From an uncultured Verrucomicrobiae bacterium (GTDB lineage: Bacteria > Verrucomicrobiota > Verrucomicrobiia > Limisphaerales > UBA11358), in assembly GCA_963804345.1 (NCBI GenBank), contig CAWDPX010000004.1, forward strand, positions 320,181 through 384,180: a DNA stretch of 64,000 bases, written 5' to 3'. The first letter of the stretch is position 1, and each line of letters starts with the position of its first letter. Under the pieces are notes generated by a model. It was not told where the DNA came from. It did not search any database and worked only from the letters and a program-made list of their open reading frames with translations. Both the position numbers and the translations under genes were made by a program. Below are positions 17,332-19,482 of the stretch, piece after piece.

Positions 17332-19482
17332 ATGAACAAAAGAATCCTATGCACGATTGGGCCCGCCACGCGCCATCCCAAAATCCTCCGGCGACTTCAG
17401 GCCCTGGGGGTCAGCCTGTTTCGAATTAATCTCTCGCACACCAGGATTGAGGACGTCCGTCCAACCATCGCCTTTCTACAGGAACACTCGAACGTGCCGG
17501 TCTGTCTCGACAGTGAAGGCGCGCAGATTCGGACGGGCACGTTCGAGTCCGCGCCGTTGAGTCTGGATGAAAACACGTTCGTCGAAGTCCATAGTTCTCC
17601 GCCGCCCGGGAAGGAAGCGGGGCTGACGTTCACGCCGGAGAACATCTGCGACCAACTAGAGGTCGGCGACCTGATCACGATCGACTTTAACGCAGTCGTG
17701 GCGCAAGTGACCGCGCAGCAAGACGATCACGCCACCCTGCGAATCCTCAACGGCGGCCAGGTTGGCATCAACAAGGCGGTGACCGTGCATCGGGACATCG
17801 CCCTGCCCGCCATCACCCCCAAGGATCGTGAAGCCATCAGAATTGGGCGCGAGATGGGCGTGAAACATTTCGCCCTCTCGTTCGCGAATCGGGAGGATGA
17901 TGTTCTCCAAATGCGGGCTCTCATCGGCGAAGGTGCAACGCTGATTTCCAAGATTGAATCGCTCAATGGCATTGCAAATCTTGAGGGGATCGCCCGGCAT
18001 TCCGACGCCATCCTCATTGATCGCGGCGACCTTTCCCGGCAGGTCGCGCTGGCGAAGATCCCGGCACATCAGAAGGACATCATTCGTCGCGCCAAGGCCG
18101 TCGGCCGGCCGGTTTTCGTCGCCACCAATCTGCTCGAGTCCATGATTAAACTGCCCGTGCCGACGCGGGCCGAAATCAACGACATTTACAACACGCTGGC
18201 CGATGGCGCCGACGGCCTCGTTCTCGCTGCGGAAACCGCCGTCGGTCATTATCCCATTGCGTGTGCCGGCATGGTGGCGAAAGTGATCTCCGAGTTCGAG
18301 CAGGCGCATGGCGGACGCATCATCCCGGATGGATCGTTGCTTGTCCGGCCGCATGGCGGAACGCTGGTGGAACGGGTTCTTTCACGATTTGATGAAGCGG
18401 ACCTTGCGCTCCTCCCTCGGGTGGTTGTGGCCGATACCGACCTGATGGATGCGGAGCAAATTGCGCTGGGCACCTACTCGCCGCTAACCGGCTTCATGGA
18501 CCGGGCCAGCCTGACTTCCGTGCTGGAGCGGAACCGGCTCGTTGACGACACGGTGTGGACGCTGCCGATCACACTGCAGGTCAATGCGGACCATGACCGT
18601 CATCTGGCCGCGGGCGCCCGCGTTGCGCTTTGTTCCAAAGAAGGAACAGTTCACGCAATTCTGGATGTCACCGAACGCTTCGAACTCGATCCCCTGCGCC
18701 TCGTCGAAAAATGGTTTGGGACCTCCTCAACCGACCACCCGGGGGTCGCCCGCATCCTCGGTCGCGGACCCATTTTCCTGGCGGGTGAAGTAACCCTGGT
18801 CCGGCGGCTGACATCCCCCCAAAACCAGTTCATGCTAACTCCGTCGCAGACGCGGTTTCTGTTCAATCAAAAAGGCTGGGAGCGGGTCGTGGGCTTCCAC
18901 ACCCGGAATGTCGCCCATCGCGCCCACGAGCACATCCAGATCGAAGCACTAAGGCTGACCGACGCAGATGGTCTTCTAATCAGTCCGGTCATCGGCCCCA
19001 AAAAGCGCGGGGACTTTCAATCGAGCGCGGTCCTTGCCAGCTATCAGGCGTGTCTGGAGAACGGCATTTATCCCAAAAATCACGCGGTGTTAAGCGGCTT
19101 CGCCTCCTACCCGCGGTATGCCGGCCCGCGCGAAGCGGTCTTCACGGCGATCTGCCGCCAGAACATGGGCTGCAGTCATTTCATCATCGGCCGCGATCAC
19201 ACCGGCATCAAGGACTACTACAAACCCGATGACAGCCAAAGACTCTTTGAGACCGTCGGGGACATCGGCATCGTGCCGGTCTTCTTTGGCGCCATTGGCT
19301 ATGATGCAACGCGGGATTCATACGGTGAAGAATTGAACGGCCACCTCACTCCCATCAGTGGAACGGAAGTGCGGGAGGCTGTCCGCGAGGGCCGCCCGAT
19401 TCCAAACTGGATGGTGCGGCAATGCGTTCAAGATGCCCTTCGTTCCGAGCGGAAAGCTGGCCGCAGTGTGTTTGTGGAATGA
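17332..19482 (+). CDS. fusion protein: pyruvate kinase A/B-domain barrel + ATP sulfurylase (sulfate adenylyltransferase)
   Basis: PK motifs: [72 protein letters not shown]. Sat motifs: [41 protein letters not shown]. One uninterrupted ORF. Confidence 0.85.
   Translation: [716 protein letters not shown]

Follow-up and report, generated by a model that had tools for sequence, protein, structure and literature searches.

A widespread bacterial fusion of pyruvate kinase and ATP sulfurylase with a putative role in PAPS synthesis for surface-glycan sulfation

The fusion gene and its surroundings

In the window (the whole stretch of 64,000 nucleotides from an uncultured Verrucomicrobiae bacterium that was analyzed), an ORF scan recovered an open reading frame at 17206..19482 on the forward strand with no internal stop. 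Taking the ATG at 17332 as the start, which agrees with where homologues begin and with the start called for an identical protein (locus L086), the gene spans 17332..19482 (+ strand, stop included). Its 716-aa product, read in a continuous frame across the junction, joins a pyruvate kinase (PK) without its C-domain to a PUA_2-ATP sulfurylase (ATPS). This assignment was drawn from the ORF, Pfam, and full-length homologues; the protein cluster P0001 is also 716 aa long, with 97% identity at 100% coverage.

Residues 1-325 (17332..18306, +) form the PK A (TIM barrel) and B (lid) domains and lack the C-terminal allosteric domain, as judged from Pfam PF00224, alignments, and an AF2 model. A linker of ~13 residues (326-338; 18307..18345, +), delimited by AF2 pLDDT (< 50 at residues 326-335) and the lack of Pfam coverage, leads to the PUA-like N-terminal domain of ATPS (residues 339-491; 18346..18804, +; PF14306, E 8e-40) and then to the ATPS catalytic domain (residues 499-705; 18826..19446, +; PF01747, E 6e-65), where GRDHTG is present. 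A preliminary description of this DNA had proposed a single ORF uniting a PK barrel with a complete ATPS, and the Pfam domains and open frame bear this out; the motifs it quoted for both enzymes are all present and in the order given. The PK C-terminal domain that it reported missing (PK_C, PF02887) had no match in the Pfam scan of the fusion protein, in which PUA_2 starts at residue 339.

Each of the 120 best protein clusters shows this fused architecture, as do 80/80 of the best genome loci, which come from many phyla and include complete chromosomes and cultured isolates. The junction therefore does not reflect an indel, in line with the earlier statement that no stop or frame change interrupts the linker. 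A frameshift or lost stop joining two genes during assembly or sequencing, for which nothing was found in favor, is refuted by these clusters and loci together with independent assemblies of the same protein, and we give it practically no credence; the fusion is confirmed as a real, widespread bacterial protein.

The gene sits in a glycan/LPS-type biosynthesis cluster (11533..27105, no single strand assigned), delineated from Pfam, gene calls on the identical locus L086, and ORFs. This cluster encodes two GT9 heptosyltransferase-like, three GT2, and one GT11-like glycosyltransferases, along with an MsbA-like ABC exporter, a sulfatase-family membrane protein, and a DegT aminotransferase. An APS kinase and a sulfotransferase had been placed within 5 kb of the fusion, and both were recovered there. 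The presumed partner, APS kinase (CysC), is encoded at 12652..13293 (+; PF01583, E 6e-68; NF003013, 281 bits with a cutoff of 163; also called as a gene on the sister contig), 4 kb from the fusion gene with opposite-strand genes between, and the APS kinase domain (PF01583) was absent from the fusion polypeptide itself by Pfam. A Sulfotransfer_2 sulfotransferase, the presumed PAPS consumer, lies at 15159..15971 on the - strand (PF03567, E 1.8e-5, 25.5 bits with a cutoff of 22). A scan for promoters and terminators around the fusion gene returned the same counts as shuffled sequence.

Neighborhoods were compared across the best 80 genome loci of the family, with neighboring ORFs grouped by single-linkage clustering and those overlapping the fusion gene left out. 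In these related loci, too, the fusion gene is set in surface-polysaccharide clusters. APS kinase was nearby in 33/80 loci and directly downstream on the same strand in 29/80, where cysC often overlaps the stop codon of the fusion gene. Sulfotransferases were nearby in 44/80 loci (adjacent in 27/80, directly upstream in 25/80). The three-gene cassette is not universal, because ~31/80 loci have a sulfotransferase and no cysC within 10 kb. In loci of Caldilineaceae and rhizobia, P-loop proteins of ~270 aa lie beside the fusion; compared with APS kinase as candidate divergent members of that family, they matched in the Walker-A region only.

Conservation of the two catalytic halves

PF00224 covers residues 3-310 of the fusion protein (profile positions 4-326 of 328, E 6e-67). 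The A/B region aligns end to end with the closest solved canonical PKs, those of Pseudomonas aeruginosa (7oo1) and Escherichia coli (PykF, 1pky) at ~35% identity, and the AF2 model gave an rmsd of 2.2-2.9 Å over the PK A/B domains. The window protein shares these domains and all catalytic residues with the two bacterial enzymes but lacks their effector/tetramerization C-domain, which in canonical PKs holds the effector site and one tetramer interface, and its TIGR01064 score (271.4 bits) lies under the NCBIfam equivalog cutoff of 306.4.

Loss of the PEP, metal, or nucleotide ligands from the PK half had been put forward as something to check, and the window protein retains every one of them (rabbit numbering: R72, N74, S76, D112, R119, K206, K269, E271, D295, T327, E363). 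Across 121 family sequences, with pairwise identity down to ~53%, the ligands for PEP, Mg, the K+ site, and nucleotide are essentially invariant. R31, N33, D60, R67, K207, E209, D233, T265, and E301 were unchanged in 121/121, S35 (rabbit S76) was kept in 119/121, H36 was nearly invariant, and K148 (rabbit K206) was Lys in 113 sequences and Arg in 8.

Alongside this conservation, the family carries invariant PK signatures of its own that set it apart from canonical PKs, LD[TS]EGAQ[IV]R, ATN, and LAAET (LAAETA in the window protein). The K+-site motif is invariably EGAQ, whereas canonical PKs have KGPE. In rabbit numbering, the invariant substitutions of the active-site region are K114E, P116A, E117Q, Q328N, and S361A, corresponding to E62, A64, Q65, N266, and A299 of the window protein. 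The family residue at rabbit position 117 is thus Gln, at a site that is Glu in K+-dependent and Lys in K+-independent PKs.

For residues 336-705, the closest solved structures were the short homo-oligomeric sulfurylases of Methanothermococcus thermolithotrophicus (8a8d, E 8e-75) and Thermus thermophilus (1v47), and the structural match of this half to 8a8g reached a TM of 0.91. The HxxH nucleotidyl-transferase motif, the RN of QxRN, and GRDHxG, which the window protein has in common with 8a8d and 1v47, are all present, and the PHGG and YSPLxGFM motifs of the PUA-like domain are conserved. R525, H529, H532, G620, H623, and G625 were invariant in the 121 sequences, with N526 and R621 each kept in 120/121 and D622 in 119/121. 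In contrast to the short sulfurylases, the window protein is fused to PK and has His (H523) for the Gln of FQTRN, a replacement found in 121/121 (family signature FH[TSG]RN); all five solved sulfurylases with alignments shown have Gln. Thr or Ser mostly stands for the Ala of GRDHAG in the family. Scores were under the NCBIfam cutoffs for both TIGR00339 (299.4 bits versus 322.95) and NF003166 (350 versus 387). The preliminary description was silent on the His-for-Gln exchange and on EGAQ for KGPE.

The residue conservation points to catalytic constraint on both halves of the fusion. The PK substitutions and the His in the sulfate pocket could be signs of altered specificity or regulation.

Spread and alternative architectures of the family

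Relatives were identified in > 2,000 protein clusters and, at the level of species, in 553 genomes from at least 10 phyla, including cultured Mesorhizobium, Ensifer, and Methyloversatilis. The Ensifer match lies on a plasmid whose PLSDB record has no annotation at the locus. We found no functional paper on a PK-ATP sulfurylase fusion in the literature, only in-vitro PK-coupled assays, nor a solved structure of the fusion, and the database labels, assigned automatically, read only 'pyruvate kinase' or 'sulfate adenylyltransferase'. The earlier suggestion that the architecture is uncharacterized therefore holds for function; the architecture itself is neither rare nor absent from automatic annotation.

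The EGAQ-type, C-domain-less PK module of sulfate-activation loci is a family first defined in this analysis, by its signatures, the absence of PK_C, and fusion or adjacency to ATPS and/or APS kinase, all of which the window protein displays. The clade with its own signature was found only in sulfate-activation contexts, in at least five architectures, all with ATPS or APS kinase. Besides the form in the window, the PK module is fused straight to APS kinase, without a sulfurylase, in P0139, P0242, P0269-P0271, and P0275, and P0297 has the form PK-PUA_2-APS_kinase. PK-PUA_2-ATPS-APS_kinase triple fusions, in which the sulfurylase is followed by the APS kinase domain, were found in P0200 and P0201, and in P0224 by BLAST. 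One PK barrel stands alone, 4 bp upstream of cysC, and no sulfurylase was found within 8 kb of it. The ORF after the standalone barrel P0189 was considered as an APS kinase and ruled out.

In ~25 representative clusters, an intact PK is joined to a sulfurylase domain whose FHTRN/HxxH, GPREA, and GRDHxG motifs have degenerated. These sulfurylase domains are predicted from their motifs to be catalytically dead; they retain the PUA-like motifs, and the members carrying them still adjoin cysC. Because of the alternative fusions, the standalone form beside cysC, and the forms with a dead sulfurylase, APS kinase emerges as the constant partner of the PK clade.

Proposed role in PAPS synthesis

With APS kinase as that partner, the architectures support a PEP-driven recycling of ADP to ATP that would relieve ADP-dependent inhibition of APS kinase. 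In vitro, human PAPSS1 gave practically no PAPS without PK/PEP regeneration of ATP, owing to a dead-end E-ADP-APS complex of the APS kinase (PMC9885120). The link between PK and APS kinase drawn in the preliminary description is thus backed by the direct and triple fusions, by the barrel 4 bp before cysC, and by this biochemistry.

We consider it probable, from domain make-up, catalytic-residue conservation, gene linkage, and alternative fusions, that the fusion is a bifunctional sulfate-activation enzyme whose PK half recycles the ADP released by CysC with PEP, providing PAPS for surface-glycan sulfation. The C-terminal half would be an active Sat-type ATP sulfurylase (ATP + sulfate -> APS + PPi) and the N-terminal half an active, non-allosteric PK (PEP + ADP from CysC -> ATP + pyruvate), so that with CysC the net reaction would be sulfate + ATP + PEP -> PAPS + PPi + pyruvate. 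Local removal of ADP would keep APS kinase out of the E-ADP-APS complex, and its recycling would supply ATP for both ATP-consuming steps. CysC would then draw off APS fast and pull the unfavorable sulfurylase equilibrium indirectly, and the PAPS would pass to sulfotransferases for a sulfated surface glycan. In this scheme, catalysis by each half, the way in which flux runs, and any physical association with CysC are inferred.

The proposal that the PK half pulls the sulfurylase step as a built-in energy-coupling module did not hold: the PK reaction has no intermediate in common with ATP + sulfate -> APS + PPi, so there is no direct coupling, and any gain would be indirect, via APS kinase. In the GTPase-coupled ATP sulfurylase of E. 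coli, CysDN, GTP hydrolysis is directly mechanochemically coupled to APS synthesis. CysDN is alike in setting a second high-energy compound against the unfavorable energetics of APS, but it belongs to an unrelated protein family, and the PK fusion shares no such intermediate with the sulfurylase step. In addition, ADP diffuses freely, and ADP derived from CysC is the same as bulk ADP to PK, so that a benefit of fusion over the housekeeping PK of the cell would seem to call for a complex or co-regulation. The 4-kb distance of cysC in the window, the ~31/80 loci that have a sulfotransferase without cysC within 10 kb, the family-specific substitutions, and the scores under the equivalog cutoffs of both enzymes also speak against ADP recycling beside CysC.

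Regulation or assembly may tentatively be offered as the reason for the fusion, a possibility to which we assign a clearly smaller share of confidence. The sulfurylase or pseudo-sulfurylase domain would then replace the PK C-domain as an oligomerization and allosteric module, with sulfate, APS, or PAPS gating PK, or PEP gating the sulfurylase. The sulfurylase stands at exactly the position of the missing C-domain, the ~25 clusters with intact PK and degenerate sulfurylase keep their PUA-like motifs, and the AF2 pTM of 0.78 for the fusion protein suggests a defined inter-domain arrangement. A precedent is the ATP sulfurylase of Penicillium chrysogenum with its dead, allosteric APS-kinase-like domain, as cited in PMC13213808. 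On that account, it parallels the pseudo-sulfurylase members in the turning of a pathway enzyme domain into a regulatory pseudo-enzyme, although a different domain decayed and the sulfurylase site of the window protein is intact. Against a purely regulatory role, the subfamily of the window protein keeps its sulfurylase catalytic residues without variation, which argues that catalysis is selected there. Such a role is compatible with ADP recycling, as it concerns why the halves are fused and leaves the chemistry the same.

It appears improbable that the PK barrel goes beyond generic ATP regeneration and belongs, as a dedicated part, to a complex that activates sulfate by new chemistry or channeling. 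In one version, PEP-derived phosphate would be handed directly to the nucleotide on APS kinase or the sulfurylase; in a more radical version, APS itself would be phosphorylated with PEP in loci without cysC. Were this so, the His-for-Gln and E117Q/K114E/S361A changes would be signs of an altered mechanism.

It is equally doubtful that the PK half became fused by chance and has no specific part in sulfate activation, as an extra PK of the housekeeping type or a relic devoid of catalysis, even though databases call members simply 'pyruvate kinase' and any cellular ADP can serve PK. The clade is distinct and, throughout its at least five architectures and at least 10 phyla, was seen only in the context of sulfate activation, and a dead relic is ruled out because the PK catalytic residues stay invariant in every architecture class.

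Very unlikely, in our judgment, is a PK-like barrel with a changed acceptor, which would use PEP to phosphorylate a compound other than ADP. If that compound were APS, phosphorylated at its 3' position, the fusion could by itself act as a PAPS synthase at loci with no cysC close by. The ~31/80 loci that pair a sulfotransferase with no recognizable APS kinase within 10 kb would fit this, as would the invariant, family-specific E62, A64, Q65, N266, and A299 lining the PK active site. Yet the canonical PK contacts for the phosphates and adenine of ADP (R31, N33, H36, R67, K148) are all retained, a bona fide APS kinase repeatedly occurs in fusion or translational coupling with the PK module and would be superfluous were PAPS a product of PK itself, and the cysC of sulfotransferase-only loci could lie elsewhere in the genome.

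The favored reading, ADP recycling beside CysC, has counterparts in known systems. Bifunctional PAPS synthases (human PAPSS1/2 and the Aquifex aeolicus Sat/CysC, 2gks) are likewise multidomain, have a Sat-type sulfurylase, and serve PAPS-dependent sulfation, whereas the window protein lacks their APS kinase domain and has the N-terminal PK barrel, which to our knowledge occurs in no characterized PAPS synthase. The engineered in-vitro synthesis of PAPS with PK/PEP has the same three activities and the same aim of ADP removal, but mixes separate enzymes that the natural family appears to hard-wire into one polypeptide or operon (PMC9885120). A triple fusion of ATP sulfurylase, APS kinase, and pyrophosphatase in stramenopiles (Bradley et al. 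2009, as cited in PMC13213808) follows the shared logic of fusing a by-product-removing helper to sulfate-activation enzymes. As described there, its helper removes PPi, the direct product of the sulfurylase and thus a true pull, whereas the PK helper would use PEP to remove ADP, the product of APS kinase.

We rate the fusion as an extension of the known multidomain sulfate-activating enzymes. The family is a distinct and widespread PK clade without the allosteric domain, mislabeled in databases as housekeeping PK or plain Sat, with consequences for how metabolism is reconstructed in rhizobia, Methyloversatilis, Verrucomicrobiota, and many uncultured lineages. Its pseudo-sulfurylase members offer a fresh case of a pathway enzyme decayed into a probable regulatory or scaffold domain. 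The family, including the PK-Sat-CysC triple fusions, also provides a natural enzyme for biocatalytic PAPS production, in which engineers now add PK/PEP by hand. The awkward energetics of sulfate activation are known to be answered by coupling to GTP (CysDN), by an APS kinase on the same chain (PAPS synthase), and by a fused pyrophosphatase. The present family, a marker of bacterial glycan-sulfation cassettes, would add a fourth answer, the recruitment of a glycolytic enzyme by which the second phosphorylation is paid for with PEP and inhibitory ADP is cleared.

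Domain structure and catalytic residues of the fusion

A single open reading frame (17206..19482, + strand) runs without interruption through both enzymes, as the preliminary description had read it, and its in-frame ATG at 17332 yields a 716-aa protein with the same N-terminus as full-length homologues (cluster representative P0001: 716 aa, 97% identity, 100% coverage). Pfam domains identified were a pyruvate kinase (PK) barrel (residues 3-310, E = 6e-67), PUA_2 (residues 339-491, E = 8e-40) and ATP-sulfurylase (residues 499-705, E = 6e-65), with no Pfam match to the PK C-terminal domain; the motifs quoted earlier were all recovered. 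Against NCBIfam models the protein scored strongly yet below cutoff, with 350 bits for sulfate adenylyltransferase (cutoff 387) and 271 bits for pyruvate kinase (cutoff 306). The PK half aligned end to end with the solved structures of Pseudomonas aeruginosa 7oo1 and Escherichia coli PykF, and the sulfurylase half with those of M. thermolithotrophicus 8a8d and T. thermophilus 1v47. In an AlphaFold2 model built from a 40-sequence alignment (mean pLDDT 86.7, pTM 0.78), the linker (residues 326-335) was disordered. Foldseek matched this model to sulfurylases (TM 0.91, to target) and PK A/B domains (rmsd ~2.2-2.9 Å), and found neither a PDB entry covering both halves (best query-normalised TM 0.50) nor a solved structure of the fusion.

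Conservation was examined across the window protein and 120 relatives (n = 121; rabbit-PK numbering for PK positions). R72, N74, D112, R119, K269, E271, D295, T327 and E363 were invariant (121/121), S76 and H77 nearly so, and position 206 was Lys or Arg; loss of the PK ligands, which the preliminary description had considered, is thus not seen. In the sulfurylase half R525, H529 and H532 (HxxH motif) and H623 were invariant, and N526 was retained in 120 of the 121. Judged by these residues, both halves look catalytically competent.

Several signatures set the family apart. LDTKGPEIR is replaced by LD[TS]EGAQ[IV]R (K114E, P116A, E117Q), ATQ by ATN and LSGET by LAAET, all invariant in the family. 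K+-dependent PKs carry Glu at position 117 and K+-independent PKs carry Lys, and Gln here is a third state. The sulfurylase FQTRN becomes FH[TSG]RN in 121/121, placing His523 (18898-18900) in the sulfate pocket; the five solved sulfurylases compared in alignment all keep the Gln. In yeast ATP sulfurylase the equivalent Gln touches the APS sulfate. GRDHAG is mostly GRDH[TS]G, with Thr624 (19201-19203) in the fusion.

Distribution and genomic context

A protein cluster search with the fusion returned 2,238 candidates at E ≤ 1e-20, and the three-domain architecture was the same in 120 of the 120 best clusters, at identities down to 53%. Scanning one genome per species with the patterns LD[TS]EGAQ[IV]R and LIDRGDLSR recovered relatives in 553 genomes, the best 80 matches all being full length; together with the 120 clusters, these rule out an assembly artefact. 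Limisphaerales/Verrucomicrobiae MAGs were 92-94% identical to the window. Beyond Verrucomicrobiota, the 80 loci spanned Alpha-, Beta- and Gammaproteobacteria (including cultured Mesorhizobium, Sinorhizobium/Ensifer, Methyloversatilis and Pseudaminobacter), Actinomycetota (with cultured Salsipaludibacter), Chloroflexota, Planctomycetota, Omnitrophota, Elusimicrobia, Acidobacteriota, Gemmatimonadota, Calditrichaceae and Halobacteriovoraceae. The preliminary description had named, as a condition against its reading, that the architecture be both common and already functionally annotated; it is common, and database names went no further than 'pyruvate kinase', 'sulfate adenylyltransferase' or 'ATP sulfurylase'.

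APS kinase and/or sulfotransferase genes occurred in 64 of the 80 loci. APS kinase (cysC) was present in 33, in 29 of them directly downstream on the same strand (gap typically -3 to +25 bp). Sulfotransferases (Sulfotransfer_3/1-type or window-type) were found in 44 and adjoined the fusion in 27, in 25 of which the gene was co-directional and immediately upstream; approximately 31 loci had a sulfotransferase and no cysC within 10 kb. On Pfam-annotated contigs the neighbours included Wzy, flippases, glycosyltransferases, NeuB, CMP-sugar synthetases, DegT and sulfatases, as well as Na/H-exchanger or TauE-type transporters, and this content shows that the setting is surface-polysaccharide biosynthesis. 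Conserved P-loop proteins of ~270 aa (directly downstream of the fusion in loci L016, L019, L035 and L056) and ~275 aa (~1.1 kb upstream in rhizobial L013, L020, L021, L030 and L031), in which the APS kinase match was confined to the Walker-A region, may represent new kinases or proteins akin to sulfotransferases. In Mesorhizobium/Ensifer a conserved block comes after the fusion and cysC (e.g., L083 12826-16481); it encodes a membrane protein of the Na_H_Exchanger family, a PqqD/HPr-kinase-like P-loop protein and an NTP_transf_5 protein, a hint of a larger cassette of fixed composition that might include anion transport.

In the window, APS kinase (12652-13293, +; E = 6e-68) is encoded 4.0 kb upstream of the fusion and a Sulfotransfer_2 protein (15159-15971, -) 1.4 kb upstream, both within the 5 kb first reported. 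The cluster in which they are embedded also encodes glycosyltransferases (GT2, GT9 and GT11-like), an exporter resembling MsbA, a membrane protein of the sulfatase family and a DegT aminotransferase. The APS kinase frame stays open ~650 bp further upstream (12001-13293, +), where it overlaps the GT9 gene on the other strand; translation probably begins near 12652, the start called on the sister contig. On that contig (L086), an independent assembly whose fusion protein is identical, the GT2 gene (window 13303-14241) is split in two (5972-6909) and the sulfotransferase is called at 180 aa (8025-8567) versus 270 aa in the window, differences due either to misassembly of L086 or to genuine pseudogenisation in a sister strain. 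Mobile-element and RHS-repeat debris flanks the glycan cluster (4848-6431, 7653-9176, 10045-11585), including an IS66-family transposase ORF (7653-9176, -), and G+C content falls to 0.46 at 6-8 kb; together these suggest a recombination-prone or horizontally acquired region. ISL3/IS4-like transposase fragments lie downstream on the sister contig (L086 20131-22151). Elsewhere, tandem ORFs at 31123-31995 (+) and 32135-32986 (+) share the N-terminal sequence MSEFKYACPVCGQHMKCDSSQSGTVMECPTCFQKITAPQAPA, preceded in the former by a short extension, and look like zinc-ribbon-like paralogues.

Architectures of the EGAQ-type pyruvate kinase clade

The PK half alone was searched exhaustively against 1.84 billion representative proteins and the matches classified by domain. 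The barrel with the LD[TS]EGAQ[IV]R signature (EGAQ-type) is a distinct PK clade. PK-PUA_2-ATP sulfurylase accounted for 45 representative clusters, and a triple fusion added a C-terminal APS kinase (P0200, 904 aa; P0201, 930 aa; P0224, 918 aa). PK-APS kinase proteins without sulfurylase were P0139 and P0242, joined in a follow-up search by P0269 (on an 85-kb Omnitrophica contig), P0270, P0271 and P0275, and by P0297 (PK-PUA_2-APS kinase). Standalone barrels of 325-358 aa formed 29 clusters; one of them, P0172, lies in a NeuB/flippase cluster 4 bp upstream of cysC, and no sulfurylase occurs within 8 kb of it. In about 25 further clusters (including P0121, P0125, P0129, P0135 and P0167) an intact PK, as read from sequence, precedes a degenerate domain that lost the FHTRN/HxxH, GPREA and GRDHxG motifs and kept PUA-like motifs, a probable pseudo-sulfurylase; cysC adjoins in both members with context examined. 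Rarer forms were PK-CBS (P0138) and P0258 (1151 aa), where a type I phosphodiesterase/nucleotide pyrophosphatase domain precedes PK-PUA_2-ATP sulfurylase. In the more distant P0262 (1051 aa), PK barrels and an adenylate kinase domain share one chain, and it and P0258 are further cases of PK joined to nucleotide-handling enzymes. PK catalytic residues were invariant in every architecture class; the partner that stays constant across the clade is therefore APS kinase, whose reaction yields ADP, and not the sulfurylase.

Proposed role in PAPS synthesis

The best-supported model, which we hold with moderate confidence, is that the PK half would support PAPS synthesis by using PEP to recycle ADP to ATP, for a net reaction of sulfate + ATP + PEP -> PAPS + PPi + pyruvate. 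Human PAPSS1 gave practically no PAPS unless a PK/PEP system was supplied, because APS kinase is trapped in a dead-end enzyme-ADP-APS complex (PMC9885120). Regeneration of ATP from APS kinase ADP, as first proposed, thus stands as the favored role; the accompanying idea of a pull on the sulfurylase step survives only in indirect form, in that ATP recycling would speed APS consumption. Energy is not coupled directly into that step, since PK and sulfurylase have no shared intermediate.

A structural or allosteric role for the sulfurylase domain is suggested by the pseudo-sulfurylase members and by its location, which is precisely that of the lost PK C-terminal domain. Such a role is compatible with the recycling model; a precedent cited in PMC13213808 is the dead APS-kinase domain in fungal ATP sulfurylase. 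Any gain of the fusion over the cell's own PK may lie in complex formation, stoichiometry, or regulation replacing the lost C-terminal domain.

Full-text literature searches found no description of a PK-ATP sulfurylase fusion. The components are already known, as is the idea of multidomain sulfate-activating enzymes, with PAPS synthase and the stramenopile ATP sulfurylase-APS kinase-PPase fusion as examples, and the surprise is tempered by fusion sequences being already public and common. What appears to be new is the recruitment of a dedicated PK clade, devoid of its C-terminal domain, into sulfate-activating enzymes.
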